From the IMG/VR virus record IMGVR_UViG_3300037313_000284, positions 64,001 to 128,000 of that record: DNA of 64,000 nt. One strand, given 5' to 3'. A program made the translations under genes and the position numbers. The notes beneath the pieces were generated by a model, which was given only the letters and a program-made list of their open reading frames with translations, did not search any database and was not told the origin of the DNA. The stretch comes from a virus. Of this stretch, positions 1-64,000 are shown piece after piece (positions within the stretch are counted from its first letter, which is position 1; each line of letters begins with the position of its first letter).

Positions 1-1884
1 GGCGCGCGCCTTGCTATACGGAACCAACTTCACGCCGCTGGCCTTAGCCTTATCCATTTTCGTCGACGTTTCTCCGTCGGCGTAGATGACGTGCGTAGTG
101 GCTTTAGTAACACTTCCTGCGATAGTTCCGCCCTTAGCTTCAATGGCTCGCTCCATTTCCTTGTCGCGAACCTTAGTGAAGACAATAACTGCGCCAGTGA
201 GCGGACCTTTGACGGTGGCTTTCTTCGTCTTCTTAGCAGGTTTAACCGGAAGACTATTGAACCAATTGACCCAAGCTTTCCAGCGACCCGCGACGTCAGC
301 AGCGCTAGTATCTGACCACCCGGCTAACGAAGCCAATTCCGCACGTAACTCGCGCACGTTTTTAGGCTTTTGGTTAGTCATAACGTCCCATAGATCGCGG
401 GCGCTACTTTCACCGAAACCTTGTCCGAACACTCCGCTATACGCCATTAACTTTGGAATGGCTGCGGATTGTAGCGCCTTGCGGATACCGTCTGGAATCT
501 TCTGCGCAGCGGAATTGCCAGCGCCTCGGTCAAGCCAATCGTCGTAGTCCATCGAAATGACTTCCGGAATGGACTTCTCTGCTACCAGTGTAGCGATAGC
601 TGGACCGAAACCCGTCACGCCGATCTTATTAAAGAAGATTTGCAGTTGCTTGGCGTTGGACTCACTGGCGTGGTCCTCTTGCAGGGTAGTGATATTAACC
701 TTGTTGGCGTCCCACTGATAGGTTTTAGCCTTAGGGAACGAAGCCATCGCAGCCTTGCGCGTAACCTCGACAATGTACGGTATAACGCCACCAGACCGAA
801 TGATTTCTACTTCAGCGCCGGGTCCTAGCTTGTTGACCTTTACGTACTTCGCGTTGTGCGCAGTAGCTTTAGTAACTGTCACGCCGTCGATCTTGACGGG
901 TTTGATGATCGCGACCGGTTTCAGTTGTCCGTATCGCGAAACTTGCCAATCAACGCTAACCACCTCGGTCTTGATACCTGCGGTGTTGACCTTGAAAGCA
1001 AATGCCCGCTTGGGGTTACTAAGCTTGGGTTCTTCAGCGACGTTCGCAGCAACCACAATACCATCAATCGCGTACCGCGACTTAGACGACCAACTGTTAT
1101 AGATAGCAGTCAGCTTCTTTTCGGTAAGGTCGGCGATACTAAACTTCTGATGGACCGGCACATGCCAACCCGCGCTCTTCAGTTTCTTGAACGCACGTTC
1201 CGGAGCTAAAGCAGGAACCATGTACGAAAGCGCGATAGCCATAGCGCGCTTGAGCACTTTCAGGTTAGGGGCACTGGAGTTAACAATACTCGCAATGGCG
1301 TTGCGTTCCACTTCCGGATCGCCCTCGTCCTCCATATCCTTCAGAGAACCACGCGGCATTACTAATTCAAAACGGATGACTTCGCCGTTAGCGATACGGC
1401 CCAGCAGTTTGTACTTGGTCAAAGGCTCGATCAGGTGCGAAACATCGACCCCGACGCCATCTTTACCTCTAGTAACTAGCTGCTTTACGCCCTTAGCGTT
1501 GCAGCGGTATTGCAGGCTGAAGCCGTCCACCTTCTCGGAAACGATAGCCTCACTAGCCGAGCCGATCTTGGCCTTTACGCGATTAGTAAGGTCTTTGGCG
1601 TACGCCTTATCTAGGCTGGACATAGGCGTTTCATGCCGCACCTTACGCGCGCTAGCGTGTTTAACTTTCGGGGCTGCGCCAACTTGCTTCTCAATGTCCG
1701 GGTAGAACGGCTTGAGCTTTTTAGTAAGCCGATCAAACTCCGCGTCAGACATGATGGAAGCGCCGTTGTGGTACGCAGTATTAGCCACGTTCCAGCGGGT
1801 ATAATCCTTCTTAGCATCCGCCTTAGTGTACGCGGCTTCTTCGATAGCCTCGACGGCTTTGGTAGATGGAAAGAGAGAGCGCAT
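1..1884 (-). CDS. ligA: NAD-dependent DNA ligase (3' end runs off the window)
   Basis: Not in the ORF track. Manual translation from ATG at 1884 gives MRSLFP...AYHNGASIMSDAEFDRL...HETPMSSLDKA...SEKVDGFS (KxDG adenylation motif) and a BRCT-like end (STKMDKAKASGV). Confidence 0.93.
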   Translation of the reverse strand, partial: MRSLFPSTKAVEAIEEAAYTKADAKKDYTRWNVANTAYHNGASIMSDAEFDRLTKKLKPFYPDIEKQVGAAPKVKHASARKVRHETPMSSLDKAYAKDLTNRVKAKIGSASEAIVSEKVDGFSLQYRCNAKGVKQLVTRGKDGVGVDVSHLIEPLTKYKLLGRIANGEVIRFELVMPRGSLKDMEDEGDPEVERNAIASIVNSSAPNLKVLKRAMAIALSYMVPALAPERAFKKLKSAGWHVPVHQKFSIADLTEKKLTAIYNSWSSKSRYAIDGIVVAANVAEEPKLSNPKRAFAFKVNTAGIKTEVVSVDWQVSRYGQLKPVAIIKPVKIDGVTVTKATAHNAKYVKVNKLGPGAEVEIIRSGGVIPYIVEVTRKAAMASFPKAKTYQWDANKVNITTLQEDHASESNAKQLQIFFNKIGVTGFGPAIATLVAEKSIPEVISMDYDDWLDRGAGNSAAQKIPDGIRKALQSAAIPKLMAYSGVFGQGFGESSARDLWDVMTNQKPKNVRELRAELASLAGWSDTSAADVAGRWKAWVNWFNSLPVKPAKKTKKATVKGPLTGAVIVFTKVRDKEMERAIEAKGGTIAGSVTKATTHVIYADGETSTKMDKAKASGVKLVPYSKARA

Positions 1885-1910
1885 TTGTTAGACCCTAATA
1901 AACACGGAAT

Positions 1911-1935
1911 GGGAGGGGTCGAAGAGACCCCTCCC
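1911..1935 (-). terminator. Hairpin between portal and ligase genes
   Basis: GGGAGGGGTC-N5-GACCCCTCCC stem; weak U tract. Confidence 0.5.
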
Positions 1936-1938
1936 TTA

Positions 1939-3750
1939 TTAATCTTCAATGCCAGCCTTGATCTTGGCATTGTGAGTTTCCGCAACACGCGCTAGCGCCT
2001 CGGCGATAGTCTTGTGTTGCTTGTCACGTAGTAACCTCTTACCGAGCGCGGTAGAAGGACGCATACGTTTAGTCCCGACTTCCTGATACGGCTCCATGGC
2101 TTCAGCCGTTTCGTCGTCGTAAGAACGACCGAGAATACCAACAGGTTGTGTCAAGTCACTAAACATAGCGAACTCATCACCACCCGGCGCGCCGTCACCT
2201 TCGACTAAAGGCTTCGGCATAATATCTCGGATATCTTCGATGTATTTAGCTAGGCGCTTACGGTCATCCAAGTCTTGCTTGTGGTTTTCCATAACCGCTT
2301 CGAAATCCATACCACCAGCCGCGAACAACGCGCGGATAGGTGCAGGGACATTACGCTCTTCTAGTAAGTTGAGCATTTCGATATAGGCTTGGTCACCCTC
2401 AGGCATTAGCGACTGACGCCAAGTGATCTTAGGCGTGTCGTACAGACTGACGTTAGTAATCGTGTTGGCAGCGTTGGCCGCCACTTCTAGCGCAGTGAGT
2501 TGCCCGCGTTCTTTGCCCGCGCCTTTGATCATATAGTCATTGGCTTTAGCGATCTGCGGGAAAATCTTGCGATACATCAACTGTTCGGTAACTTGGTTCC
2601 GCTCAGTCTTAATCGTTTGCAGGAACGTGGAAATCGCCACTTCCGCGTTATTAAACGTAGCGTCGCCCGATAGGAACGACTCAGACACGCCCAGCGAACG
2701 AAGCTTAAAAGCAACAGTCTGTTCGAAGCTATCCGTGATCCGCCAGAAATCAGTCGGGTTACGAACCTCGTTAGGGCTAATACCTTCACGCGTAACGACG
2801 ATAGCGCCTAGCGGGTCAGCGTCTGCGTTATTAAATAGCTCTGCGATCTGCTGCATTTCCTCAGGCGAGGCTAACCATTGGTCGCCCATACCTGCGGTGA
2901 TGTGCAGAATACCGCGTTGCCTACGGTGCGCCGCTTCAATCGTGCCACGAGTTAGCGCACGTTCGATCAAGAAGATCGGCAGGATGCGGTGCAGGATACT
3001 ATTAAACCGAGGATCGGGACCGGGGCGGTCAATCCACACCACGCTATCCATCGGAACCGGAATAACCTTCGCGCCCTTCTGTTGCAAGAATTGCGGAATG
3101 TTCTTCTTAATGTCGGCTAGACGATCATCGTTGCTGTTAATAATGTCCGAAAGGAAATCATTAAGCTGGATATCGACCACCGGGTCCATACCGAACACCG
3201 GTGAATAGATGATCTTAGAAACGGCCATACGCGAGTACGGCAACATGCTGTCGTAGGTCTTCTTAGCGCCGTTCCAGTCAAGCATGCCTAGGAACGCACC
3301 TTGCACGTCGCGTTCGATAGCCAATCGCGGCATGACCGTACGCAGCCGCATATTGTCAACGGCCTCTTCATACTTCTGAATGCGAGACTTTTCTACGCCG
3401 TGAACTGCGAAGTCGCCGTACGGGATATTAGCGCGTAGATCGATAGCGGGACCACAAATACTATCTTCACGATACAACGCGTTATAGTATTTATAAATCT
3501 CGGGAGGAGCGTTAGACGACGAGCCGCCTTTGTTAGAACTAGACGAACCGCCAATGTAATTCAGCGATAAGTCTTCGTCAGTAATCCCGCCCATTGCCGC
3601 TGACGACGTGCTAGTGCTACTAGCAGTCTCACGAAACCGCGCGATCTCATTACCGGAACGGAATTGCCCGGCACTATTAGCCATTGAAGTTTCGCGACCT
3701 GCGACGACGTTACGGCCTTGAAGCTGGTATTTACTTAGTCCGCTGAACAT
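1939..3750 (-). CDS. Putative portal protein
   Basis: 603 aa; portal-like segments (CGPAIDLRANIP, SILHRILPIFLIE, LGVSESFLSGDATFNNAEVA, PKITW) in a virion-gene context. Confidence 0.65.
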   Translation of the reverse strand: MFSGLSKYQLQGRNVVAGRETSMANSAGQFRSGNEIARFRETASSTSTSSAAMGGITDEDLSLNYIGGSSSSNKGGSSSNAPPEIYKYYNALYREDSICGPAIDLRANIPYGDFAVHGVEKSRIQKYEEAVDNMRLRTVMPRLAIERDVQGAFLGMLDWNGAKKTYDSMLPYSRMAVSKIIYSPVFGMDPVVDIQLNDFLSDIINSNDDRLADIKKNIPQFLQQKGAKVIPVPMDSVVWIDRPGPDPRFNSILHRILPIFLIERALTRGTIEAAHRRQRGILHITAGMGDQWLASPEEMQQIAELFNNADADPLGAIVVTREGISPNEVRNPTDFWRITDSFEQTVAFKLRSLGVSESFLSGDATFNNAEVAISTFLQTIKTERNQVTEQLMYRKIFPQIAKANDYMIKGAGKERGQLTALEVAANAANTITNVSLYDTPKITWRQSLMPEGDQAYIEMLNLLEERNVPAPIRALFAAGGMDFEAVMENHKQDLDDRKRLAKYIEDIRDIMPKPLVEGDGAPGGDEFAMFSDLTQPVGILGRSYDDETAEAMEPYQEVGTKRMRPSTALGKRLLRDKQHKTIAEALARVAETHNAKIKAGIED

Positions 3751-3769
3751 AGCGTCTCGCCTTTATTTA

Positions 3770-3976
3770 TTAACCTGCGTCGCGAATGGGAAACACAGTA
3801 CGGCTAGCAGGATGGAATAGCGCTTGGATAGGTTGTTCGTTAACGCCACCGACGACGCACTTGAGTTCTTGCCCGGTAGGATTAGCACCAACCGGCTTGC
3901 GCTTAGGGATATTAATCAAATGCGAAGCCTGTTCGCGATGAATATCCAGAGGCGACACATAGGGTTTATCGCTCAT
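3770..3976 (-). CDS. Hypothetical protein
   Basis: 68 aa, strong SD AGGAGG, TAATTTA motif upstream. Confidence 0.7.
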   Translation of the reverse strand: MSDKPYVSPLDIHREQASHLINIPKRKPVGANPTGQELKCVVGGVNEQPIQALFHPASRTVFPIRDAG

Positions 3977-4889: not shown

Positions 4890-7800
4890 TTACTTAGAAC
4901 CCCGTACAACACCGTTGTAGCTGAGGCTCCAAACACGCTTACCATTGCTCGTTAGCATAAGGCCCTCGTCGGCATCGAACTTAGCCTTGGTGGGATAACC
5001 CAACTCGACGTATTCGCTTTCGGGAGCGTCCTTATAAGGCGACAGAGCAAAGTGATCACTACGAGTCTTACGAACCCACATCGGAGCACCAACTTTGACG
5101 CCTTCAATCGGAGCGCCATTATTAGTAATCAGCGTGATCGTAGCCCGCCCGCAGTTCTTAAGGAAGAACATGAACTCGTCAAAGTCTTCCACAACCGGGT
5201 TGTGCTTTTGCTCAGGCCATTCTTCAATCGTGATATCATCGTCGTCATCGTCGAGGCTGATAGGCTTCTTAGCACCACCAGTCGGACGCGCCGGACGAAC
5301 GTCAGTAATAGTAGCCGCAGGTTTCGTTGGCTTACTAATAGCTGGTAGTTCGATATGACCGCCGTTAATAGTGTCAAACGACGCCAGGAACTCTTCCGGG
5401 TCTTCCAGAATGTCCCCATCGGCAATGATTTTCTTCGCTTCTTTCTTGGCTTCAGAAATATTGCGATAGAACTTCACGCCCATGTCATCGAACTTCTGCA
5501 CCTTCTCGGTGTTCGGAATTCCCTGCATCAGTTTGCCGAGAATGCTTAGCACGTTGAACGGATGCTTACTAATCGAAGCGCACAGGTAGAATTCACCCTT
5601 CTGCACGATTGGGTAGAGGCGGAACGTTTGCGGGTCTCGCGAGGAGGCCCGTGTCGGAACGCGCTTCTGTTCCACTTTCATGAAGTTAGTGATTTCCGAG
5701 AAATCGTACGGCTCGACCTGACGCAGTTTACCACGCGAAGACAGGCCTTGCGCCACACCTTCAATCTCAGCCATGAGATTGCGAGGAATGACGTAGTTTG
5801 CCTTACTAACACGCGCTAAGAACACATCAAGAGCCTTGCGGTTCTTGAACCCAACTCGCGCCATATCAGGGAAAGGCTTGAACCCGTAGCGAGTATAAAG
5901 AGTATCCATCGCGTTGCCTTCAGCGGTATCGTAACCAACGATGGCAAGTTGACCGTTAATAGCGAGAGCTTGAAGAGCCACGGTTGCTTCCGTTTCCTCT
6001 TCTTCGTCCTCTTCCTCTTCGTCCTCGTCTTCGAATTCCTCTTCCTCGATTAACGTATCAATCGGGTCTTCCGGTTCCTCGTCTTCTAGTTCGTCTTCAA
6101 GCCCAAGCAGATCGATATCGTCTTCATCGAAGTCGTCATCGCCAGCCTCGAAATCAGTAAACTCAGGCTCAGGCGTGTTACGCCCGCGCTTGCGCTTATC
6201 TGCCTCTTGGCGTTGCTCGTTAGTAATCGGCTTGTGCTTCGGCATGCGAACCGGAGCGCCAGACTTACCTCTGATCGCGTTAGCTAACGTCTTAGCGCCT
6301 TCCTCATCCATCGGCACGTAAACGCACGTCTTCGGGAGACGAACACGCTTCATCTTCTCGCCCTTAGAAGGCGGAAGGCCGGGGATGCGGATAGTAAGAC
6401 GGTGACCATTACGCAGAATGCCATCAACGATACCAGGACCGAATTCGGTCATCACGTAATCGCCGATTTTGATTTCTACGTTGTCAATAACCGAAGGATC
6501 GTCGTCTTCATCTTCGGGGCCGTCACCTTCCTCGTCGCTATCTTCGTCCTCGTCACTGACGGGCACGGTTAGCGAACGAATGGGCTGCATATCAAACCCC
6601 ATGGGGTTAATAGGCTGGACACCCGGTAGCCACGGAACGTAGCACGACGCCGAACCGGGAATGGCTTCCCCTTCAATCGTCGGCACAACCACAGCCGCAA
6701 CGAAGTCTTTAACGCTTAGCGGACGACCAGCGTCATCTAGTAACGTTTGACCGGTAAGCGACTCAACTTCACGACCAATCTTTTTCGTTTCCTCAAGAGA
6801 CGATTGCTGGAACCAGTTATTATACTTCTTTTGTTGTTCGAAGTATTGGTTCAGCAGTTCCTCGGGGAACGATTGAATGATCTTCATCGACATGCGAACG
6901 GGCGGCAGGATTTTAACGTCGCCCTTAAAGAACGTATTGCGGAAGCTCGGCACGTAACCGAATTCCACCATCGCGTTATTAAACTTCTTCGCTAGCAGAC
7001 GAGCGATACGCAAGTCGTCAATCGTCGGAGCGCCGGAAGGCTTAGTGGCAACGATAATGTCGTAACCAAGGCTATCACGGTTGAACTTACCGAACGGATC
7101 GGGACGGCGGATACGTGCTAACGATTGGGTTTCACCACCCGGCGTCCAGACTTGCTGCATGCGGATGATACGCGAACCCACTTGGAGGTTGTGACCTTCC
7201 GAGATACTAATCTCGTCGGCAACCATGAAGCGGATTTTGTCGTCAGTCTTGAACTGCTCGACCTTATCGAACGCGCCCGCTTGATAACGCACGGAACGCT
7301 TCTTTAGATCGGGCGGCATGTTATCCCAAACGTGCTTACCAACGAACTTGTTGGGAGCCATCAGGATTACTTTGTTGCCAGGATCAGCACGGTAGGTCGG
7401 GGCATGCTCTTTAATAACAGCAAGCTTACCCTTTTCATCCATGTGCGCGTACATAAGATCGTACGCGTACGCTGCCTTGACCGAAATCAGATCGTCAGCC
7501 TCAGGAATAGCGAGTTCCAGCGTTCCAGGCTCGGCTTCTTCACCGTCATTCTTGAACTTGAACTCTTCGTAGACGAACGTGCCGTCCACGAAATCATTAA
7601 ACTGCGTAGGATCGTTGACAAACCGGTCAATAACCGAGAAGTGCTTACGCACCACGCGTTCAATCTTATTGCTGATCGCGGGATCGTCGTCACCGCTCTC
7701 AACTTTTTCCAGATCACCCTTAACCGCCTTGTCGTCTTTGATGCGGCTAATAGCTTTTTGGAACAACAGATTGTAATAACGCGTTTGCAGTTCGGTCATC

Positions 7801-10622
7801 TGCACGCGGTGATAGATTTCCTGCATCTTGGGAAGCATATAATCCCAAGAGCGGCTATCCTTACGGTACACCAGCGAGTATTCACGCATCGCGCCGTCAA
7901 TAGCGTCCGCGTCTTCAGGCGAGCCGATTTGCTTGGCGTTCTTATCACCAAGGAACGCTTCAGCGAAGGCTTCCACGTCACCACCCAGCATAGCCGGGTT
8001 AATCTTTTGCGTTTGACCCACAAGGTCGGTCACGACGTTATTAATCGTGGTACCCGAGGACAGACGCACATATTCCGCTTTAGCGCACAGGCAGAGGAAC
8101 GCTTGCGCCAGACCGGAGTCTTGGTTCTTGATCTTGTGACTTTCGTCACCGCAAACGTAGTCCAACCCAGCGCCCGCGAGGATATCCACGAAAGGATATG
8201 CCTTCAGGGGCTTCGCACTACCGAAGTTATCATAGCTAGATACTTGCTCGTAGCTGGACTTCAGTTCCGCGTCAGTGTGCTCGTTACGCAGCGTATTGTA
8301 GTTAGTAACGATAATCGTGTTGCGCGGCAGATCACGAATGAAAGCGATGACTTCCGCCATCGTCATGTTCATACCGAACGGGTTCATAAGCACGTCACGC
8401 ACGTGCTGATAAGTGAACGGGAATGCGTTCATCTTACCGTTAGTGAACTCGTTGATTTCCGCAACAAACTGTCGCACTAGGTTATTAGGAACCACGACGA
8501 CCGGGCGCTTGATCAACCCTTTGGCTAGCAGCAGGTTAATATCAGCGATGATGCAGTTGGTTTTACCACCACCCGGAGCCGCGCCGATGATAGCAGATTG
8601 CGGCGGTTCGCCACGGTCAACAGCCTGAATGTATTCCGCTTGGTGCGGAAACACAAAAGACATACGCGACGTGTCGATGTTCGGAATAACAATCGGCTTA
8701 CTGCGGTCCAACGAGTCAACGATATTATCGCGCTCATTGGTACGACGCTTTTCGTGGAAAGCCGGGATGTTAACCGTATGCTTAGCCACGATGTAGCAGT
8801 CGGTATCGGCTTCCATGTTATTAAGCACGCCACCTTCAGGCTCGCGCTTGTCACCGGAAGACCAAACCTTCAGTGCAACAGCAGCAATGGCCGCTGCGCC
8901 CTTATTAAGGAAGCTAATAATCTCGTTTTCAGCACGCTCTTGTTCGTCCGTCGTGCCGTCTTGCAAGTCGCCGACCAGACGACGTGCCCACATTTCTTGT
9001 TCGCTATTATAAGCGGTAGCATCACGCACAGCGTACGTGAAGTAAGCCCAATCTTCGAAATCGACCTTCAGCGGGTTGACTTGCGTCGGCGGGATAGCGC
9101 AACCAGACACTAGCGCATTAACTTGCCTATTAATGCTAGCGTCTTTAACAGCCGACATACGCTTGACCATTTCGAAAAGCGTACGACCTTCAACGGACAA
9201 CGCTTTGAAACGATCTCCATTCCATCCGAAACCAGAACCATTAATAATCCCACGCAGAGCGTAAGGATACATCTTGGCAATGGTGATCGGGTCTAGCGCA
9301 CGCGCACCACGAAGGTTCAGGCTACTAACAGTGCCTTCAATCGTGGTGAAAACCATGACTTCGTTATGGTGGTCAACGTACAGCACGGAAGGCGGGAAAC
9401 GGAACTTAGGTGCGTCGCGGTCGCGACTACCTTCCGTCAACTTACTCATATCGATGGCCGAAAGACTTTCGAACCATTCGTTACTAGCGGATTGGTATTC
9501 CGCCATCTTGTTTTCTTTAGGTAGCCGAATGACGCGATTACGACCCGTAATCAAATAACCGTCTTCGTTAGTACGGACCATCGGCACGTAGCCGGTCCGC
9601 TCTTCCTTCTTTCGGTTGCGTCGCGCCATCGCCATAGGCGTAGGCTTACGAGGCTTAGCACGCTTCCACGCGGTAGCCGCACGACCCTTTAGGTCTTGCG
9701 TAAACGTCGCCGTGGCCTTGTCATCCGTAGCGCCCGAAGCCGCACGAATGATCGAGTTAATATGCGTCATGAACATGAACGGCACGAACTCTTCTTTGCT
9801 TTCGCAATAGAGAGTCCACCACGCATAATCCAGCGGAAGGTGCAGTTCAGCGACGATTTCAGCCGCCATCACTACGGCGGAATTGCGTGGCAGTGCGCCG
9901 CTATCGGCGATAGTGTATGGAAGTCCACCGACTTCCGTAATGTAGTTGTTATTACCAAACAGACGCATAGTCAGCGAAACGCCAACGCCCTTCGGCAGCG
10001 TCTTGACGGCTTGGAATTCTTCGGTCTCACGAACGAAGTCTTGCATGTAGGGTGAGAATTCGCCCTTCACTAACTTCAAGAACGTCGCTTGGTCGACAAC
10101 GGACTCTAGGTTGCCATCCTCACCGAACATCAAATTCGGCTTAGTATTACGACCCTCACGCTTGTATTCCGTGGGATGCTTGTAACCAGGAAAGAGTTTT
10201 TGCAGCAGACGCTCTTGATCCGGATCGAACGGATTAATAACCAACCGCGTGCTCATCGGCTTCGCGGAAAGGATCAATCCGTCTTGGCCTTCCTTACGAA
10301 TAGCCACGAACGGGAGACGCGCAAAGGTCGTAGCGACCTTTGCAGGCATTTCGAAACCCTGAAGTGTACCTTTACCCGATGCTAATTGCTGCATCGTGTA
10401 GAAGTTGTCGGTCTTGCTATTAATAGCCGAGGCAATAGCCCCACGTGCTAGCACGTGGTTAGCTGCAATCTCTAAACCGACAATAGCCGCCGCAGCGTTG
10501 CGGAGGTTATTATGGATTTCGACGCGATCCGACTCGGCCTTGTCCGCCGCTTTGTCTTCCCCTCGCGCGTATTCCATATAGCCTTGGTAACCGCCCGTAG
10601 AGAGTAGGGACCTTTTGTACAT
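4890..10622 (-). CDS. Large SNF2-like (SF2) helicase/ATPase, multidomain
   Basis: 1910 aa; Walker A GAAPGGGKT, motif Ia VVVVPNNL, DESH, SGT, ISEGHNLQ, QSLARIRR; acidic linkers. Confidence 0.85.
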   Translation of the reverse strand: MYKRSLLSTGGYQGYMEYARGEDKAADKAESDRVEIHNNLRNAAAAIVGLEIAANHVLARGAIASAINSKTDNFYTMQQLASGKGTLQGFEMPAKVATTFARLPFVAIRKEGQDGLILSAKPMSTRLVINPFDPDQERLLQKLFPGYKHPTEYKREGRNTKPNLMFGEDGNLESVVDQATFLKLVKGEFSPYMQDFVRETEEFQAVKTLPKGVGVSLTMRLFGNNNYITEVGGLPYTIADSGALPRNSAVVMAAEIVAELHLPLDYAWWTLYCESKEEFVPFMFMTHINSIIRAASGATDDKATATFTQDLKGRAATAWKRAKPRKPTPMAMARRNRKKEERTGYVPMVRTNEDGYLITGRNRVIRLPKENKMAEYQSASNEWFESLSAIDMSKLTEGSRDRDAPKFRFPPSVLYVDHHNEVMVFTTIEGTVSSLNLRGARALDPITIAKMYPYALRGIINGSGFGWNGDRFKALSVEGRTLFEMVKRMSAVKDASINRQVNALVSGCAIPPTQVNPLKVDFEDWAYFTYAVRDATAYNSEQEMWARRLVGDLQDGTTDEQERAENEIISFLNKGAAAIAAVALKVWSSGDKREPEGGVLNNMEADTDCYIVAKHTVNIPAFHEKRRTNERDNIVDSLDRSKPIVIPNIDTSRMSFVFPHQAEYIQAVDRGEPPQSAIIGAAPGGGKTNCIIADINLLLAKGLIKRPVVVVPNNLVRQFVAEINEFTNGKMNAFPFTYQHVRDVLMNPFGMNMTMAEVIAFIRDLPRNTIIVTNYNTLRNEHTDAELKSSYEQVSSYDNFGSAKPLKAYPFVDILAGAGLDYVCGDESHKIKNQDSGLAQAFLCLCAKAEYVRLSSGTTINNVVTDLVGQTQKINPAMLGGDVEAFAEAFLGDKNAKQIGSPEDADAIDGAMREYSLVYRKDSRSWDYMLPKMQEIYHRVQMTELQTRYYNLLFQKAISRIKDDKAVKGDLEKVESGDDDPAISNKIERVVRKHFSVIDRFVNDPTQFNDFVDGTFVYEEFKFKNDGEEAEPGTLELAIPEADDLISVKAAYAYDLMYAHMDEKGKLAVIKEHAPTYRADPGNKVILMAPNKFVGKHVWDNMPPDLKKRSVRYQAGAFDKVEQFKTDDKIRFMVADEISISEGHNLQVGSRIIRMQQVWTPGGETQSLARIRRPDPFGKFNRDSLGYDIIVATKPSGAPTIDDLRIARLLAKKFNNAMVEFGYVPSFRNTFFKGDVKILPPVRMSMKIIQSFPEELLNQYFEQQKKYNNWFQQSSLEETKKIGREVESLTGQTLLDDAGRPLSVKDFVAAVVVPTIEGEAIPGSASCYVPWLPGVQPINPMGFDMQPIRSLTVPVSDEDEDSDEEGDGPEDEDDDPSVIDNVEIKIGDYVMTEFGPGIVDGILRNGHRLTIRIPGLPPSKGEKMKRVRLPKTCVYVPMDEEGAKTLANAIRGKSGAPVRMPKHKPITNEQRQEADKRKRGRNTPEPEFTDFEAGDDDFDEDDIDLLGLEDELEDEEPEDPIDTLIEEEEFEDEDEEEEDEEEETEATVALQALAINGQLAIVGYDTAEGNAMDTLYTRYGFKPFPDMARVGFKNRKALDVFLARVSKANYVIPRNLMAEIEGVAQGLSSRGKLRQVEPYDFSEITNFMKVEQKRVPTRASSRDPQTFRLYPIVQKGEFYLCASISKHPFNVLSILGKLMQGIPNTEKVQKFDDMGVKFYRNISEAKKEAKKIIADGDILEDPEEFLASFDTINGGHIELPAISKPTKPAATITDVRPARPTGGAKKPISLDDDDDDITIEEWPEQKHNPVVEDFDEFMFFLKNCGRATITLITNNGAPIEGVKVGAPMWVRKTRSDHFALSPYKDAPESEYVELGYPTKAKFDADEGLMLTSNGKRVWSLSYNGVVRGSK

Positions 10623-10655
10623 CGTTAGCTCCTAGCGAACTGTTAGGCGTAATTA

Positions 10656-11564
10656 CTAGAACGATTCTTCGCGGACGATTTCGTCCCAAAGACCAAAATG
10701 CATACCGGTATGCTGTTCTAGTAACGAAGCCATTCCCTTAGCAAATGCCACACGATGTGCACGACCCCACGTTCTCGTATCGAAGAACGCTTTATCGTAA
10801 ATTTGCATCGCGGTTTGAAGGGACAACATATCAGTAGCTTGGGCCTTTAGCAAGCCTTCCACTTCTGCTTCATTAATAGGTTGAAGAAGGTCCATTATCC
10901 TCTTGAGTTCACGAGAGTTTTGCTCCAAAACCGAAAGTTCCAGTCCGGATTTCTCGCGCCGACCGAAGTCGGTAGCGGCGGCAGTTTCGACTTGGGCGAA
11001 CTCCGCAGCTTCCTCATCAATTCTAGTATCTTCCATAAGCCTTATCACCTTATTGGTTCCCGGCACATGGTGGTATCCGGGGAAGCTGCTATAGAAACGG
11101 ATTAGCTTTTGCAGCCCAATTGGACTGTCTTTGCTAGGACCTACGCGTATTAACTTAGGGCCGTCTGTGCGTAGGATGATAGCTAACGCCGCTCGTGCTA
11201 ATCCTTTTGCGCGAAACGCGGGTGCAGTACGCACGTCTGTTAATTCATCAGCATCTAGCTGATAGACCGCGCGGAACGCAACGTGTTCGCCGTAGCAAAC
11301 CGTATAGTAAATATGCCGCATGGCTTGCATCGTATACAAACGAAAACCATGGGGCATATAGCGACGTTCGTATTCATGGGTTAGTGCGTAGGAATCGCTT
11401 AGGTGGATATCCCTAGCGTGGCGCAAACCCAAACGACCGGTGCCGGCATTTACTAAAAACAAACCGTTGTCTACGCGAGTGTATAGCGTACTAAAGGGCC
11501 GCGCGTAATCTGAGTTCCGCTGACGGGCCGAGCTTGAAGAACCCAAGCGACGTGACTGTGGCAT
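10656..11564 (-). CDS. GNAT-like acetyltransferase with extra C-terminal domain
   Basis: VRTAPAFRAKGLARAAL acetyl-CoA motif A and LIRFYSSF; start refined to MPQSRR. Confidence 0.6.
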   Translation of the reverse strand: MPQSRRLGSSSSARQRNSDYARPFSTLYTRVDNGLFLVNAGTGRLGLRHARDIHLSDSYALTHEYERRYMPHGFRLYTMQAMRHIYYTVCYGEHVAFRAVYQLDADELTDVRTAPAFRAKGLARAALAIILRTDGPKLIRVGPSKDSPIGLQKLIRFYSSFPGYHHVPGTNKVIRLMEDTRIDEEAAEFAQVETAAATDFGRREKSGLELSVLEQNSRELKRIMDLLQPINEAEVEGLLKAQATDMLSLQTAMQIYDKAFFDTRTWGRAHRVAFAKGMASLLEQHTGMHFGLWDEIVREESF

Positions 11565-12749: not shown

Positions 12750-12986
12750 TTACACCCGCTTTTTAGCCTGCCGCCTTGCAGGAGGCTTAGGGGCTTTGGC
12801 TGGTTTTGGAGCCTTCGGCGGCTTGTTAGGTTTAGCGCTGTACTTGCGGTTAAGCTCATCGTACTCTTTGTAGAGTTTATTAAGCTTGCCGGGGTTCTTA
12901 GCGCGATCCTTGAACGCCGTGACCATTTTCTTCTGGACCTTTGCCATCTTGGATCGCAAAGTGGTCTTGCTAGGAGCCTTAGCCAT
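12750..12986 (-). CDS. Small Lys/Pro/Ala-rich basic protein
   Basis: 78 aa, KAPKP repeats, SD GAGG. Confidence 0.7.
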   Translation of the reverse strand: MAKAPSKTTLRSKMAKVQKKMVTAFKDRAKNPGKLNKLYKEYDELNRKYSAKPNKPPKAPKPAKAPKPPARRQAKKRV

Positions 12987-19729: not shown

Positions 19730-20293
19730 CTACATCGACTTGCGCTTACCAGCCTTTTTGGCGGGCTTCGCAGCTTTCTTGGCAGCCTTAGGAGCGGCCT
19801 TTTTAGCAGCAGGCTTAGCAGCCTTCTTAACCGAAGCCTTCTTTGCAGCGGGCTTCGCGGCGGCCTTCTTAGCCGGACGGCCAGCCTTCTTAGCGGCGGG
19901 CTTAGCAACGGCCTTCTTAGCAGCCTTGGGGGCGGCCTTCGCAGGTTTAGTAGCCTTCTTAGCCGGAGCCTTAGCAGCGGCCTTCTTCGACTTAGCGACC
20001 GACTTCTTCACGTTGCCGCGAATCGTCTTCCACTTAGCAAACGTGGTCGTTTGCATGCCCTTACCACCGGACGGACCGGGCTTCTTAGCCGGGCGACCTT
20101 GCTTGGTCTTACCGGTCTTATAACGGAGCAGCGCGGCCTTACGAATCTTGGCCTTGTGCTCGGCCGACATAGTGCGGCCCTTGGTCGACTTAGCAGCGGC
20201 GCGCTTACCAGCGGCAACAGCCTTCATGTCCTTCTTACGGGCTTTGCCCGTCTTCGGATCGATCTTCTCGTTCTTACCGAGTTTGCGAGCCAT
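19730..20293 (-). CDS. Histone H1-like Lys/Ala-rich protein
   Basis: KPAAKKA repeats, SD AGGAG, strong codon bias. Confidence 0.85.
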   Translation of the reverse strand: MARKLGKNEKIDPKTGKARKKDMKAVAAGKRAAAKSTKGRTMSAEHKAKIRKAALLRYKTGKTKQGRPAKKPGPSGGKGMQTTTFAKWKTIRGNVKKSVAKSKKAAAKAPAKKATKPAKAAPKAAKKAVAKPAAKKAGRPAKKAAAKPAAKKASVKKAAKPAAKKAAPKAAKKAAKPAKKAGKRKSM

Positions 20294-39933: not shown

Positions 39934-40435
39934 TGTTACTAGCCATTCGACGTGCGGCCTCTTGCTTGATGTAATGCTCGGCGTAAGGCCAAGAGTAAAC
40001 CGGCGTCAGCAAGATTTCCGTGAATTCTTCACTACTAAGCGACTGCAACTGTTGCTCAACGGTCCGGATATTAAGCTCGTCAACGATTTGCTGGAGCGGA
40101 GCGGTAATCCAACCTGATCCTTGGCACGTGTTGCACCAATAATCGTCACTATCTCTACCGTAGCTTATTTCGGGACGATGAAAGAAAGTCGGCTTGCGTT
40201 TGAACACATCGATACGCCGCTCTCGACAGTGATGACAATCAACGTACCGCTCAGCATAGACGATAGTCCCGGCTTTGGCGTTTCCAGGTTTATTTAGCAA
40301 CCCGACTAGATGCCCATCATACACATTTCGACTAATAACCATACGGGTAGTCTGGTTCAAAACGATGAAATGTCTAGGCTTGTCGAAGTGAAGATCGCGA
40401 TCTTCGTTATCAGTCACAAATGTTTGCTCATCCAT
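39896..40435 (-). CDS. Zn-finger hypothetical protein
   Basis: CHHC...CNTCQGSG. Confidence 0.6.
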   Translation of the reverse strand: MDEQTFVTDNEDRDLHFDKPRHFIVLNQTTRMVISRNVYDGHLVGLLNKPGNAKAGTIVYAERYVDCHHCRERRIDVFKRKPTFFHRPEISYGRDSDDYWCNTCQGSGWITAPLQQIVDELNIRTVEQQLQSLSSEEFTEILLTPVYSWPYAEHYIKQEAARRMASNNAQSKESTAEIA

Positions 40436-41154
40436 TTATTAACCCTTCGTTCCGCTCGCTTGAAGTACAGCTGGTCAAGTTCGATACCAATAAATTGCCT
40501 GCCAAGTCGAAGGCACGCGATTGCGGCTGCGCCGTAGCCCATGAACGGATCGAGGACTACCCAACCCGGTTCTGTACTATTTTCGATGTAGTGGCGGAAC
40601 AGCGACACTGGCTTTTCCGTGGGGTGGGTCTTTGCTTTGTTGCGTGGATTGTTCGCCTTGAAGCCTTGCGCACTGCCTGGGTTATTAATCGTGCGCGCCG
40701 GTGGCTTGTAGAAAAACAACGTGTACTCGCAGTCTTTCATGTACCAGCGATTGGCGTTCTTAGTATTCTTGTCCCAGCGCAGTAAATTGTGGAATTTGAA
40801 ACCAACCTGTTTGGCTATCGTCAGGTATTCCAACAGCAACAGATTATTAACCATGATGTAGGCTTCGCGACCAGGTTTCAGCACGCGGTATAGTTCAGCC
40901 ATCCAGTCTTCGGTCTTGATTGCATTGTGCTTGAAAATCTTACCGTCGTTCTCTTTGAGAACCGAAACCTTCCAACCGGCCTTGTGCTTAGTGTTCTTGC
41001 CTCCGCTAATAACTTTATAGGGAGGATCGGTACAAACTAGATCGATGCTGTTGTCGGCCAGCGTGGCTAGTGTCGCCATGCAATCGCCGTGGATCAGCCT
41101 AATAGGTTCTTTCGATAACGTCGGCTTCGCTGTGAGCTTCACGGAGTTCTTCAA
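40414..41154 (-). CDS. Beta-class N6A/N4C DNA methyltransferase
   Basis: DPPY precedes HPTEKP and VLDPFMGYG; no adjacent restriction nuclease recognised. Confidence 0.9.
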   Translation of the reverse strand: MKNSVKLTAKPTLSKEPIRLIHGDCMATLATLADNSIDLVCTDPPYKVISGGKNTKHKAGWKVSVLKENDGKIFKHNAIKTEDWMAELYRVLKPGREAYIMVNNLLLLEYLTIAKQVGFKFHNLLRWDKNTKNANRWYMKDCEYTLFFYKPPARTINNPGSAQGFKANNPRNKAKTHPTEKPVSLFRHYIENSTEPGWVVLDPFMGYGAAAIACLRLGRQFIGIELDQLYFKRAERRVNKWMSKHL

Positions 41155-41725: not shown

Positions 41726-42436
41726 TTACTTCTTGCCCTTTTTGGCAGGAGCCTTAGCCGCCTTAGTAACCTTGGCGGGCTTGGCGCTCTTGGCTTCAGC
41801 CGTCTTCTTACCAGCCTTAACCGGGGCGGCCTTAGCGGCGGCCTTGGTAGGCTTCGGCGCAGGCTTCGCAGCCTTCACCGGAGCGGCGGTCTTCTTAGCG
41901 GCCTTAGCGGGCGCAGGAGCGGGCTTTGCCGCCTTAGTGGGAGCCTTGGTAGCCTTAGCAGGCTTCGGGGCTTCCTTGGCCTTCTTTTCAGTCTTAGCCG
42001 GAACCTTAGCCGGGGCAGCGGCCTTAGTAACCTTGGCAGCCTTAGGAGCCGTAGCCGCCGCTTGTTCACCAACTTGCAGCAGATTGGCGCGCTTGGCCTT
42101 CACGGTAGCCGAGAACTTGCCCTTACCACGTTCGGTAATAACCAGAGACTTGTTGCCTTGCAGCTTCGTAAGCAGGGCCGCGTAGTCAACGCCAAATTCC
42201 TTGGCAACCTTAGCAGTAACCAGACCACCCGTTTCCGCGACGACCTTAGCAGCTGCGTTCAGCTTCGGCGGCAGGGATTCCACCGGCGTAGTATTTTCAC
42301 GTTGCAGCGCGTGCGACTTGCCGAACGTCAGCGCCACGGAGCCCGGCGGGACCTTGGCGGGAGCTTCCTTGCCGATGACGACCGCTTGATGCGAGCCGAG
42401 CGCGGCGAGGGTTTGTTTCAGAGCCTTGTTGGACAT
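41726..42436 (-). CDS. Histone H1-like protein with globular N-domain
   Basis: C-terminal half of K/A/P repeats. Confidence 0.8.
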   Translation of the reverse strand: MSNKALKQTLAALGSHQAVVIGKEAPAKVPPGSVALTFGKSHALQRENTTPVESLPPKLNAAAKVVAETGGLVTAKVAKEFGVDYAALLTKLQGNKSLVITERGKGKFSATVKAKRANLLQVGEQAAATAPKAAKVTKAAAPAKVPAKTEKKAKEAPKPAKATKAPTKAAKPAPAPAKAAKKTAAPVKAAKPAPKPTKAAAKAAPVKAGKKTAEAKSAKPAKVTKAAKAPAKKGKK

Positions 42437-42548: not shown

Positions 42549-43064
42549 TCAGTAGCCTTCGAGCCTTGGACTGCCTCGGCGGCCCTTGCTCTTGTAGGCC
42601 AAATTAGTTCTGGCGGAAGGCGGGATGATTGGCGGGGCTTTCCGCGCCGATCCCGGCTGAGTTGCTATGCGGGCGTGCTTAGCACAGTAGCGGGAGATCG
42701 TAATATTTTTGCTATTGCTACGATAGGGAATTTCTTGACCGCAGCACAGATTACTAGCGGCATTGAAAACCCGCCACGTGCCAACCGGAAAGCGACATTG
42801 ATTAGGCTTGGCCTCGCTGTATAGGACTGCGCTCATCGTCGGCGGATGGCGCGCAACTTCTATAATCTCTGCGCTTGGTGGTTCTAATGTTCCGCCGTTG
42901 ACCAGAATGAAACTGCGTAAATCCATTCGCGTCTCACGATGCATAGTGTCGACATGTATTGCTGCCGCCTTCATCAAATCAACGATATTAAAATGGCCTT
43001 GCTCCATCCGTTCAGTAATAGCGGCTTTAGCAAAGGCAACTGCCAATGGTGTGTTCGTAATCAT
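42549..43064 (-). CDS. GcrA C-terminal-domain-like protein
   Basis: QCRFPVG...CG...YCAKHARIATQP matches the GcrA CTD pattern; GcrA N-terminal HTH not evident. Confidence 0.7.
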   Translation of the reverse strand: MITNTPLAVAFAKAAITERMEQGHFNIVDLMKAAAIHVDTMHRETRMDLRSFILVNGGTLEPPSAEIIEVARHPPTMSAVLYSEAKPNQCRFPVGTWRVFNAASNLCCGQEIPYRSNSKNITISRYCAKHARIATQPGSARKAPPIIPPSARTNLAYKSKGRRGSPRLEGY

Positions 43065-44274: not shown

Positions 44275-45018
44275 TTACGCGTAAGCGCGCCTGCGGCGCA
44301 TCAGCGCGCCCGCCGAGCCGAAGCCCATAATCATCAGCGCCCACGACGCGGGTTCAGGAACCACAGACGCCGGGGGCGGCGGCACTTCGTTCGAGGGCGT
44401 GTAAAGCGTCAGCGTCGAAGTGTAGTCGAACGGCGTCTTATAATCGGTATCGACTTGCAGTCCGTCGAATAGCAGCGTCCCGTTAATCGCAGTAGCAATC
44501 ACACCGTACTCGCCTGCCGTAGGCGCGCGGTATGAAATTTGCGTCCAAGGCGTCGCCGCGCTGTAACCCGTTGGGGCGTTGTAGCGCGTCGTAACGCCGC
44601 CGTCCGTGATCCACAGCGAGTTATCCTGCATGAGGAATTCAAACACCGGCTTCTGTTCGTTGACCTTGTAGAAGCGCACCGACAGTTCCAAGAGGCTGCC
44701 GACTTCCGGGTTAACACCCGCCGCGTAGGCGGTAAGTACGTCACCCTCGTTCAGGGTCGCGAACGGGAAGTAGAGAATCTTCGATTCGTACGAGGGCGTT
44801 CCGCTAATAACCGCCATCTTCGTACCTTCGTATGCCGTGACCGTCGTATCCCCCGACGTGAAACTGGCGGCGACGGTTGCAGGATTGATCTGCTCGTAAG
44901 GATTCATCCAGTTAGTAAAACTACCGTCTTCGAAACCTCCGTTGACGAGAACAGCCGAATTTGCGACGCCAGCGAAAGTGATAGAGGCGAGGGCGGCTAG
45001 GATAAGCGTACGTTGCAT
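44275..45018 (-). CDS. PEPxxWA-CTERM sorting-signal protein
   Basis: Signal peptide, VNGGFE, C-terminal VPEPASWALMIMGFGSAGALMRRRR. Confidence 0.9.
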   Translation of the reverse strand: MQRTLILAALASITFAGVANSAVLVNGGFEDGSFTNWMNPYEQINPATVAASFTSGDTTVTAYEGTKMAVISGTPSYESKILYFPFATLNEGDVLTAYAAGVNPEVGSLLELSVRFYKVNEQKPVFEFLMQDNSLWITDGGVTTRYNAPTGYSAATPWTQISYRAPTAGEYGVIATAINGTLLFDGLQVDTDYKTPFDYTSTLTLYTPSNEVPPPPASVVPEPASWALMIMGFGSAGALMRRRRAYA

Positions 45019-50716: not shown

Positions 50717-51442
50717 TTATGCGATTCGTGTGCGACGTTTACGTAAGGCCGCTCCAACGAAACCCATTCCTACGATTAGTAAGGCCCAAGTCTGAGGTTC
50801 AGGCACAGGCGTAGTAGGCGGGCCAGTAGGTGGTTCCGTCGGCGGGTTTCCTCCTGGTGGTTCCGGGTTATTAGGAGGATTCACCGGAGGATTTGGCGGG
50901 TTAGGTCTGATAACCGGCGGCTCCGGCATGACAGGTGGATTAGGATTAATTACCGGAGGTTCCGGATTAGTAGGCGGACCGACCGGTGGCGAAACCGGTG
51001 GCTTACCACCAACACCCACGCCGCCATCGCTACCACCTATTCCACCGCCAACCGGGAAATTATTATCATCGGGAAGGAACGTCAATCCTTGCTTAACGGG
51101 AACCGGAGGCGGCACGGCTGGGATATCACCCAGCACCGGAGGAAGACCGTCAAAGATAATAGCGGTCATGTAAACCGGGGCCGGGTTTAAATGGCATGCG
51201 AAGCGCCATTGAGCGGTTTCTATTTCCCTAATCGGGTCGATGCGAATACGCACCGCACGATAGCCGTAACGAGACTTAGCGGGCGCTCTAGCCGCCGCAG
51301 GTTTAGCGCGAGCGGGACGAGCCTTACGCGGCGGTTCCTTGACCCAGCATTCGGTTTCCCGAATCGGTTGCGCTTGAGCGCTGCCAGCGGCCAGCAATCC
51401 CGTTACTAATCCCATAAAGACAATGTTGCGCAACTGGCGCAT
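50717..51442 (-). CDS. Pro-rich PEPxxWA-CTERM protein
   Basis: Signal peptide, Pro-rich stalk, VPEPQTWALLIVGMGFVGAALRKRR. Confidence 0.88.
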   Translation of the reverse strand: MRQLRNIVFMGLVTGLLAAGSAQAQPIRETECWVKEPPRKARPARAKPAAARAPAKSRYGYRAVRIRIDPIREIETAQWRFACHLNPAPVYMTAIIFDGLPPVLGDIPAVPPPVPVKQGLTFLPDDNNFPVGGGIGGSDGGVGVGGKPPVSPPVGPPTNPEPPVINPNPPVMPEPPVIRPNPPNPPVNPPNNPEPPGGNPPTEPPTGPPTTPVPEPQTWALLIVGMGFVGAALRKRRTRIA

Positions 51443-60366: not shown

Positions 60367-60370
60367 GTTA

Positions 60371-61342: not shown

Positions 61343-61371
61343 GTTATTATAACTCCAACTAGGCTAAGGGA

Positions 61372-61752: not shown

Positions 61753-61770
61753 TCTAGTAACTCCTACCTT

Positions 61771-61992: not shown

Positions 61993-61995
61993 TAT

Positions 61996-62459: not shown

Positions 62460-62835
62460 AGTAGAAGCGGAAACAATAGTGGAAGTTGTGCAGAATGGGA
62501 GTGGAAGCGGAAACACTTCGCGTGTTAAATGGGATAGGAAATTATAAGGTGGTTCTAGCACACCCCCAAAATTCTGCAAATGACCCCCCAAAATTATACA
62601 AAATTGGAGTGTTAGTGTTAACTGTTAGATTTGGGGCAGATTCACCGAATTGTAACATGGACACCGTGTAGAGGCAAATGGAGGCCTGATAGAGGCGTGT
62701 GGAGAGGAAGTAGGGCGGAGAGGGGCTGTTTTACCGTGTAGCGTGCTGTGGGTGTATGAAATTGGCGTGTGGGGCGCTGTTTTGAGTGAGGGGCTGTTTA
62801 GGGTGGTAAAACTAAGGCAGTTGGAAGTGTGTTAC
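62460..62835. other. Non-coding, G-skewed region with short direct repeats (origin/pac-like candidate)
   Basis: GAAGCGGAAACA x2, CCCCAAAATT x2, ACCGTGTAG x2, GAGGGGCTGTTT x2. Confidence 0.35.
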
Positions 62836-62889
62836 TAGGGTGTACCGAGTTGCTCACCATGGCTCCGAATGGTTAGAGCGACCATAAAA

Positions 62890-62923
62890 CAAAAATGCCT
62901 CCCTAACGTGTTATTAGGGAGGC
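62890..62923 (-). terminator. Intrinsic terminator
   Basis: GCCTCCCTAA..TTAGGGAGGC plus T tract. Confidence 0.7.
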
Positions 62924-62983
62924 CGTGGTAGAGTAGAACGGAAACAGCTTGACCATAGGCCTCGCTGGGGGAAAAGTTATAAT

Positions 62984-63367
62984 TCAAACTAGGTCGCAAG
63001 CCACCGAACACGTGTCGATAGGCATAGCCCGTCGCCAATCCGGAATGACGTTGTGGCAAACACGGCAACTACTAGGCGTCCCCGGAGCGAAGGTGTTATA
63101 AACGTAATCGTCTTCGCAAGGCGCAAAACGAACCGGGGACGCTGCTACCGGAGCAGGAATGATAGGTGCGTTAGGTGCTTCGCATTCAACGTTAGTCATT
63201 ACGCTGATAGCGCCATCCGCTGCACGATTGATTTGATTGCAATAGGGGCAAATCCCGTCCTGTTCGGTATCCGGCGCTACACGCCATTTACTAGGATCGG
63301 TAATCTTAGCGCAATGCTTACATTGCAGCATGAGTCTGAGTTCTGCGGTCACTGTCCATGGCTCCAA
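62984..63367 (-). CDS. Zn-finger hypothetical protein
   Basis: CKHC, CPYC, CRVC, CSVAC. Confidence 0.65.
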   Translation of the reverse strand: MEPWTVTAELRLMLQCKHCAKITDPSKWRVAPDTEQDGICPYCNQINRAADGAISVMTNVECEAPNAPIIPAPVAASPVRFAPCEDDYVYNTFAPGTPSSCRVCHNVIPDWRRAMPIDTCSVACDLV

Positions 63368-63468
63368 AACAGATGCGTCGAATGGCCTCCCCGATGCGTT
63401 TGCGTAACGAATAATTACATCGGGGAGAGGGTGAAATGGTGAGACGGTACTTATGACGTGCTGGCCGA

Positions 63469-63831
63469 TTAACTTCTCAACCGCAGGAAATCAAACCACG
63501 GTTTAGAGAACGCGTACTTCACGTGCGCACGATCCAGAATAACATCTGCATCTAGCCCGTACTGTTCAATCAGCTTCATGAACTTGCCGATCACATCGCC
63601 CATTTCAGCTTCAAGCTTTGCACGGTTCGTTACGCCGTTAATAGGATCGGCGGGATCGCGCTCATCGATACCTTGGATTAATGACCGCGCTATCACATTG
63701 CCTACACGCGACAGAATTTCGATTGTCTCGAAAATTTCTTCTAGGTTCTTGCCGAGGACGCCCGTGTCTTCTGGTGTAGCCATCGGCTCCCACATCGAAG
63801 CAACTTGCTTCTTAGCAGCTTCCGTATCCAT
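63469..63831 (-). CDS. MazG-like NTP pyrophosphohydrolase
   Basis: LEEIFE...LEAEMGDV acidic motifs. Confidence 0.6.
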   Translation of the reverse strand: MDTEAAKKQVASMWEPMATPEDTGVLGKNLEEIFETIEILSRVGNVIARSLIQGIDERDPADPINGVTNRAKLEAEMGDVIGKFMKLIEQYGLDADVILDRAHVKYAFSKPWFDFLRLRS

Positions 63832-63862
63832 TTAGTAAGTTTCCCTTTTTAGATGCCGCGTA

Positions 63863-63891
63863 ATATTACCATGTCGGCCGCATCTGGTCAA
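63863..63891 (-). promoter_or_regulatory. sigma70 promoter
   Basis: TTGACC-N17-TAATAT. Confidence 0.7.
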
Positions 63892-64000
63892 ACGACGCCC
63901 AAATTCGAACGGTTTAAGTTTGTTTGAATTTGCGTAGTCAGACTACGCATTCTAGCTGATTGTCAAACCACAGGCCGCGCGGCCCGCCAGATGGCTTCCA

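Follow-up and report, generated by a model that had tools for sequence, protein, structure and literature searches.

What leads a virus to carry the same seven-base palindrome, TTANTAA, several hundred times, mostly inside its genes? The question is raised by a window of 64,000 nucleotides (the whole stretch of DNA that was analysed, to which coordinates refer unless stated otherwise), which corresponds to bases 64001-128000 of a single 140,864-bp contig, IMG/VR virus record IMGVR_UViG_3300037313_000284. The contig has 51% GC, is 92% coding under the standard code and holds 176 gene models based on open reading frames. Because it encodes a ribonucleotide reductase, a clamp-loader-type ATPase, a Toprim primase, a Mre11-type exonuclease and a T4-type baseplate wedge protein, its predicted gene content identifies the source as a large uncultured T4-like phage. 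Among GenBank phages, the closest primase is only 27-30% identical, and family searches on ~80 of the phage proteins mostly returned no match.

The original prediction, made by eye from the letters of the window, concerned the degenerate palindrome YTANTAR, which we count 293 times (4.6 per kb) against 58 copies expected from base composition; the exact word TTANTAA has 146 sites against 14 expected. The by-eye counts were close to ours, with 18 copies reported at 1-3800 (19 found) and 24 at 5000-9500 (24 found), and the motif continues through the window as had been stated. It also extends evenly over the whole contig: the 140,864-bp genome holds 318 TTANTAA sites against 30.6 expected (10.4-fold) and 1183 TANTA cores, 520 of which lie in the window. 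When all 4096 words of the form XXXNXXX are ranked, TTANTAA comes first, and the runners-up are its own outer-position one-off variants. Enrichment is confined to the 1-base spacer (TTA-N(0,2-7)-TAA, 27-56 copies vs. 31 expected), and the non-palindromic arrangements TTANTTA, TAANTAA and TAANTTA (26, 15, and 39 copies genome-wide, respectively) are not enriched. General AT-rich clustering is ruled out as the cause, as other spacers and other AT-only words show no enrichment.

Comparison with synonymous shuffles defines the word that is read. Variants changed at any of the four inner positions lose the excess (0.4-1.5), and those changed at an outer position keep part of it, with sense-strand enrichments of 3.58 for CTANTAA and 4.06 for its reverse complement TTANTAG, 3.00 and 2.95 for ATANTAA and TTANTAT, and 2.22 and 2.03 for GTANTAA and TTANTAC. 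The word has a strict core, TANTA, and a graded outer base (T>C>A>G); the xANTx geometry that it had been said to share with GANTC thus holds, with the inner four bases strict. Since the sense strand shows the same enrichment for a word as for its reverse complement, it is double-stranded DNA with two-fold symmetry that is read.

Coding sequence has been shaped to accommodate the motif. The genes hold 258 TTANTAA sites, compared with 59±6.5 after synonymous-codon shuffling within each gene, 33±6 after codon-order shuffling, 113±7 after dinucleotide-preserving third-position shuffling and 143±9.8 (z=11.7) after exact dicodon-preserving Euler shuffling. Dicodon counts themselves already hold most of the motif, yet the excess persists under this last null, where the original prediction would have had to be abandoned had the excess vanished. 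Tripeptides of the class [FLIV][NTSI][KN], which can encode the motif, do so in 193 of 341 cases (57%) against 38 (11%) expected from codon usage; synonymous choice, proposed earlier as the source of many copies, is the main route. The tripeptide class is itself 37% commoner than expected, so protein sequence has also been bent to the motif. Two frames are occupied, xTT ANT AAx (193 sites vs. 103 expected from a codon-pair Markov model) and TTA NTA Axx (63 vs. 39), and both are frames without an in-frame stop; one third of all TTA codons fall within TTANTAA sites. Density is higher in non-coding DNA (5.6 per kb) than in genes (2.0 per kb), and many of the non-coding sites serve as T-TAR-TAA tandem stops or stand right before the start codon of the following gene. 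Over the whole genome, about 18 genes terminate in the tandem stop T-TAR-TAA, that is, in the motif itself (Table 1), and many gene junctions show TTANTAA followed immediately by ATG. By number of sites, no gene is significantly over- or under-supplied.

The most informative feature of the array is that each site is surrounded by a zone of about 70-75 bp where other sites are scarce. Mean spacing is 444 bp and the minimum about 70-75 bp. Genome-wide, 9 nearest-neighbour gaps are shorter than 75 bp against 49 expected; the window has 5 against 22.7, and in two of these the sites overlap at an offset of 3 bp. At distances below 75 bp the pair correlation stays at 0.11-0.28; it reaches ∼1 at 75 bp and keeps that level beyond, apart from a pile-up at 80-88 bp. 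Gap lengths vary less than under random placement (coefficient of variation 0.85 vs. 0.99, P=0.0025). None of six control words of similar abundance has an exclusion zone. The rule also governs codon choice: frame-1 encodable tripeptides are motif-coded in 5 of 40 cases (12%) when <50 bp from another site and in 179 of 274 (65%) at a distance of at least 75 bp (Fisher P=2e-10), and in frame 0 the fractions are 0 of 41 near another site and 56 of 143 far from one (P=4e-8). In the flanks of a site, from 6 to 72 bp, TANTA stands at 0.2-0.7 of its genome mean, with TTA, TAA and TTAA also depleted, and the flanks are back to the mean at 78 bp. As the residual level of the motif inside the zone equals the unselected expectation, close sites are simply not favoured, rather than purged. 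An analysis of spacing and periodicity had been suggested with the original prediction, which had missed the zone; no periodicity accompanies it, as neither helical phasing (10-11 bp) nor stepped spacing gave a period above the 95% global threshold.

The array is a trait of a phage clade. Five syntenic relatives (L006, L007, L008, L095, and L097), from independent NCBI, ENA, JGI and Logan assemblies, have 50-68% protein identity, with third codon positions near saturation. TTANTAA is the top palindrome in all five (1.2-3.0 per kb, a 5-26-fold excess, at 49-56% GC), and pooled they show the same spacing zone as the study genome; in L006, L095, and L097 non-overlapping sites come no closer than 81, 81, and 85 bp, respectively, and a few gaps in each of L007 and L008 are shorter (24-54 bp). 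Orthologous positions retain 4-7 of 18-24 sites, against ∼3% expected from per-position identity, and 28 of the 36 positions at which both genomes can encode the motif do so in both, the numbers being small in each comparison. At some orthologous sites the middle base and the amino acid differ and the motif is kept. Codon-aware nulls, sense-strand symmetry, non-coding density, the five relatives and orthologous conservation all support the selection at the DNA level, for a dispersed site, that had been proposed from the window.

The outgroups lack the excess. An AT-rich sister clade (35-41% GC, primase 30% identical) has no excess of TTANTAA; near its primase it carries QueD-like (PTPS) and QueE/radical-SAM genes (L013 12116-12655, L014 3747-4535 and another contig), which hint at 7-deazaguanine DNA modification. 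No further clade members came from IMG/VR scans (with one protein and with a g115 alignment; g115 is described below), from metagenome scans with two alignments or from GenBank phages. The only clue to the host is a pair of phage proteins that end in PEP-CTERM sorting signals (Table 1), an unusual cargo for a phage. The PEP-CTERM tail of the protein at 44275-45018(-) is 70-88% identical to Phenylobacterium/Caulobacteraceae sequences, the nearest being from Phenylobacterium, other Caulobacteraceae and Sphingomonadales, which tentatively suggests a host of an alphaproteobacterial lineage. DNA of this putative host lineage (1.2 Mb, 68% GC) contains a single TTANTAA; the word is ∼2800 times rarer there than in the phage. 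GANTC occurs 288 times in the phage vs. 550 expected (0.52), at 0.41 of expectation in the putative host-lineage DNA, and ∼40 times vs. 80 expected in each of L006, L007, and L008.

With somewhat better than even confidence, we read TTANTAA as a selected, phage-specific array of binding sites, whose two-fold symmetric reader covers or serves, at each site, about 70-75 bp; we infer that a protein with such a footprint is the reader. The clade has written the word into its genes mostly by synonymous codons and partly by amino-acid choice, and also into gene junctions and tandem stops. A new site is favoured only where no other lies within ∼70-75 bp, making the array resemble hard rods along the genome. 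Because the motif drops to its unselected frequency inside the zone, each occupied site would cover or serve the length of the zone, and because the high-GC host-lineage DNA nearly lacks the word, the reader would be guided to phage DNA alone. In the most likely mechanism, a dimeric DNA-binding protein encoded by the phage would nucleate at each site and coat the flanks, and the resulting phage-specific nucleoprotein coat would compact, protect or mark the phage genome.

The best candidate for the reader is the putative DNA-binding protein g115, because it is restricted to the clade, lies close to a DNA methylase gene and carries a basic tail whose length would allow it to cover the DNA on either side. 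Its N-domain is folded (residues 1-125; AlphaFold predicted local distance difference test score, pLDDT, of 72-93 over about that span) and is followed by a disordered tail (pLDDT ∼40) of 111 residues, among them 33 Lys, 42 Ala, 16 Pro and 3 acidic residues, which resembles the tail of histone H1. The secondary-structure order of residues 56-113 fits a winged helix, with weak match scores and no Pfam match; in VIA-align, winged-helix proteins reach Z 3.8-5.2 and SepF 5.9, below the meaningful level. Among 1.84 billion proteins the family counts 8 representatives, which share one architecture, and it has no match in 50,697 phage records. In all five relatives the g115 homologue lies about 250-800 bp upstream of the methylase gene, and the methylase is the only annotated DNA enzyme in the g115 neighbourhood; it may modify the same site. 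L007, which has the weakest excess (4.8-fold), has two adjacent PF01555 methylase genes (10001-11493) and a shorter g115 homologue (183 aa). In a more specific form of the binding-array reading, which we consider possible but improbable, the sites would organize a sequence-addressed phage chromatin: a linker-histone-like g115 dimer at each TTANTAA would coat ∼70-75 bp, the methylase might tune its binding, and the fibre would form on phage DNA only.

Several observations weigh against the binding array and against g115 as its reader. For the N-domain of g115, fold and family searches gave nothing significant (Foldseek E>0.03; VIA-align Z ≤5.9; no Pfam or PHROG family), and all that ties the protein to the trait is co-occurrence, position and architecture. 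That co-occurrence is inseparable from shared ancestry, as the enriched genomes all share the methylase and many other clade genes. The spacing has none of the helical phasing or steps that would mark ordered wrapping or looping, and the exclusion zone could reflect a range of action instead of a physical footprint. The similarity of the PEP-CTERM tail is the sole basis of the tentative host assignment.

Among the other explanations, the most probable is that TANTA is a methylase target, an idea we nonetheless regard as unlikely. The beta-class methyltransferase of the window may act on TANTA; the phage enzyme would modify the A of that word, and the dense marks would serve as an epigenetic self-mark for another factor to read or as a hemimethylated timing signal of the CcrM/GcrA kind. 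A 5-bp interrupted palindrome with a strict core, in the geometry of GANTC, is typical of type II methylase sites. The PF01555 gene is among the best-conserved clade genes of the region (69-82% identity to its closest database homologues) and is present in every TTANTAA-enriched relative, and a PUA-like DUF3850 gene comes directly after it in three relatives. The nearest solved structures are a DpnA-type adenine methylase (6e-22, the best full-length match) and CcrM (6pbd, C-terminal part only; residues 142-215 vs. CcrM 187-260), and the extra C-terminal domain of the CcrM type is absent; the enzyme resembles the short DpnA/HpyAVI-type methylases, whose sites are unrelated. A methylase footprint, moreover, does not account for a zone of ∼70-75 bp. 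A link between the methylase family at large and the motif is rejected, as phages and IMG/VR loci have the former without the excess: four unrelated phages with methylases 56-59% identical hold 0-5 TTANTAA sites vs. ∼3 expected and are depleted in TANTA. The methylase explanation can be reconciled with the binding array if the site is both methylated and bound.

Less probable still, in our estimate, is an address for a DNA transaction: packaging or cutting sites of the terminase, priming on either strand, or the loading of host RNA polymerase through a sigma-binding phage factor. The density of the word in the phage relative to the putative host-lineage DNA would confer phage specificity on such an address, and the size of the zone matches RNA polymerase, whose holoenzyme covers ∼75 bp. 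A 171-aa protein encoded two genes away from the methylase gave a single weak match to GcrA, restricted to the C-terminal part of that family (PF07750, 6e-4, 20.6 bits against a cut-off of 26.9). The match is, however, below threshold and found in one of five homologues, and the protein has no match among solved structures, so that GcrA identity is not confirmed. A bidirectional palindromic promoter every 440 bp inside genes is implausible, and a separate late-promoter-like element, TAATTTA, stands 30-60 nt upstream of many gene starts. YTA, present on both strands of the site, resembles some DnaG template triplets, but primases read three bases on single strands and have no need of a palindrome; T4-type terminases, for their part, require no specific site.

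A neutral drive, in which biased repair of the very-short-patch type or context-dependent mutation converts near-cognate words to TTANTAA with no benefit, we hold to be very unlikely. Outer-position one-off variants are also enriched, which decay from the full site or conversion towards it could yield, and the idea is raised for HIP1 in the abstract of PMC5861425. A depleted precursor is nonetheless missing: inner-position variants offer no consistent donor, and TCANTGA stands at 1.06, which also rules out an origin of TTANTAA from TCANTGA by deamination of 5-methylcytosine. Such a drive has no reason to halt within 75 bp of an existing site, amino-acid usage is also bent to the encodable tripeptides, and the density of 1.2-3 per kb is maintained across genomes of 49-56% GC.

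Selection at the level of RNA or translation, with UUANUAA as a rare-codon cluster, an off-frame hidden stop, or an RNase or RNA-binding site, is largely refuted and in our judgement highly improbable. The motif is made of codons rare in high-GC hosts, and the phage has the matching tRNAs; each site holds three stop triplets over its two strands, and 75 nt equal 25 codons. Yet selection has favoured one 7-mer in two frames (193 and 63 sites), its density is highest in non-coding DNA, the palindromic arrangement alone is enriched, variants and their reverse complements show equal enrichment on the sense strand, and TGANTCA, which also carries off-frame stops, is depleted to 0.21. A sequencing or assembly artefact, such as base-calling errors at modified bases, has next to no probability, as no point in its favour was found, the pattern recurs in six independent assemblies that stem from different projects and pipelines (NCBI, ENA k141 contigs, JGI, Logan), and reading frames are intact, with sites conserved at orthologous codons.

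The remaining features of the region are collected in Table 1. P0144, whose CxxC pairs suggest a zinc ribbon, is conserved in the closest relative only and has no Pfam or PHROG family; in these two genomes it occupies the place that the DUF3850 gene takes in three other relatives. The H1-like protein g90 is a candidate general DNA-condensing protein; it has no Pfam family, and a TAATTTA motif precedes its gene by 114 nt. TAATTTA, after which TTAG or TAA frequently comes, is likely to be a late promoter of the T4 TATAAATA type, and a late-promoter role for TTANTAA itself is ruled out, as this distinct word fills that place. Three tRNA genes of the phage, for Lys(UUU), Leu(UAA) and Leu(UAG), decode AAA, TTA and CTA, codons that a high-GC host seldom uses and that the motif in part imposes.

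Table 1. Features of the window, with tRNA genes of the same genome and DUF3850 genes of three relatives
Feature	Position	Strand	Remarks
TTANTAA array	window 1..64000, continuing through whole genome	no strand	146 sites in window, 318 in genome
Gene-end site TTATTAA (example)	1936..1942	no strand	minus-strand T-TAA-TAA, the tandem stop of gene 1939-3750(-)
Other gene-end tandem-stop sites	3767, 4063, 12986, 58293, 62210, ~12 more in genome		
g115, candidate reader	41726..42436	minus	236 aa; folded N-domain + 111-residue basic tail
Beta-class N6/N4 DNA methyltransferase	40414..41154	minus	Pfam PF01555 at 2.2e-30; called product P0001, 221 aa
P0144	39896..40435	minus	179 aa; CxxC...CxxC pairs; start overlaps methylase stop by 22 bases
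Protein with Cys/His motif C-x16-CC...YC-x2-H	42549..43064	minus	171 aa; found in 4 of 5 relatives
g90, H1-like	19730..20293	minus	187 aa; pI 11.9; 56 Lys, 10 Arg; AKKAAAKPAAKK-type repeats
g81, Lys/Ala/Pro-rich	12750..12986	minus	78 aa; third small basic candidate
TAATTTA motifs	19075, 19380, 20407, 21111, 23619, 30389, 30663, 35257, others	minus	
PEP-CTERM proteins	44275-45018, 50717-51442	minus	
tRNA genes Lys(UUU), Leu(UAA), Leu(UAG)	L005 7147-7221, 9219-9303, 12148-12231		genome 135147-140231, outside window
DUF3850 (PUA-like) genes of relatives	L006 11080-11514, L008 10956-11420, L097 3177-3566		directly after methylase gene

Other palindromes of the genome are conspicuous by their scarcity. 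Seven of 6 bp (AGATCT, AGTACT, CCCGGG, CTCGAG, CTGCAG, GGATCC, and GGGCCC) are absent against 11-32 expected genome-wide, and the window lacks CTGCAG, CCCGGG, GGATCC, AGATCT, CTCGAG and AGTACT. CCGCGG, GCCGGC, TGGCCA and GAGCTC occur once each in the genome, GGCGCC twice and CGATCG 5 times vs. 56 expected; GGGNCCC is likewise missing (0 vs. 38 expected). The avoidance of 6-bp palindromes is classic restriction-site purging, which suggests that the DNA is not broadly hypermodified.

Set beside known systems, the array is of the HIP1 kind, distinguished by its word, its carrier, its host contrast and, above all, its short-range spacing rule. HIP1 (GCGATCGC), a word with a methylase site embedded in it, belongs to the chromosomes of cyanobacteria. 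This highly iterated palindrome is the subject of Xu, Lawrence & Durand (2018, PMC5861425). Judged by the abstract of that study, the two have in common a short palindrome at least 10-fold over-represented, written by codon choice and conserved among relatives, and so selected, and in both the reader and the function are unsettled, a structural DNA role having been proposed for HIP1 (PMC5861425). HIP1 as described there is an 8-bp, GC-rich, cellular word, 15-300-fold over-represented and with a 10-90-kb periodicity, whereas TTANTAA is a 7-bp, AT-rich, interrupted palindrome of a phage clade, almost absent from putative host-lineage DNA, with a sharp exclusion zone of ∼70-75 bp of which the HIP1 abstract makes no mention (PMC5861425). 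The Cluster O mycobacteriophages carry a 17-bp dyad repeat, TGTTCGGNNNCCGAACA, in 34 copies over ∼70 kb, many of them intergenic (Cresawn et al. 2015, PMC4351075); it too is a palindrome found throughout a phage genome, in genic and intergenic DNA and across the cluster, with its reader not identified (PMC4351075). TTANTAA differs from it in its 318 copies of a 7-bp word, mostly genic by synonymous choice, and in its spacing rule.

Comparisons also extend to the enzyme and to the candidate reader. In Alphaproteobacteria, CcrM methylates GANTC, which is read by GcrA. The phage shares with CcrM and M.HinfI a 5-bp xANTx interrupted palindrome and a beta-class adenine methylase, here encoded by the phage, and its probable host would belong to a CcrM-using lineage. 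The enriched word, however, is TANTA and not GANTC, the phage enzyme has 221 aa and aligns over ∼70 residues only, and GANTC is under-represented in Alphaproteobacteria, the opposite of TANTA in the phage. For coats and H1-type proteins, the comparators are p6 of phage phi29, linker histone H1, AlgP and chlamydial Hc1/Hc2. Protein p6 is viral, forms a regular nucleoprotein array over the genome of its virus and distinguishes that genome from host DNA, but it reads bendability with a 24-bp repeat and no defined word; H1, AlgP and Hc2 combine a folded domain with a long Lys/Ala/Pro tail, as do g115 and g90, but bind without sequence specificity. No homology of the phage proteins to p6, H1, AlgP or Hc1/Hc2 was found. 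A full-text literature search for TTANTAA returned nothing on phages, and broader literature searches found no such array described.

Phages delete short palindromes to escape restriction, and this genome purges about a dozen GC-rich 6-mers yet accumulates one AT-rich palindrome under a strict spacing rule. The phage has paid for the array with much of its synonymous freedom, with some choices of amino acid and perhaps with three tRNA genes. The case lends itself unusually well to testing, with a 7-bp word, an explicit predicted footprint of ∼70-75 bp, two or three candidate proteins and host-lineage DNA as a negative control, and it may bear on the long-open question of HIP1 function. If the phage-chromatin form of the binding-array reading is true, such chromatin would separate the phage's own DNA from that of the host, with consequences for compaction, protection from nucleases and defence systems, and packaging. 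What the array implies for these phages is a genome-wide DNA-reading function, in a large uncultured clade, that no annotation has captured.

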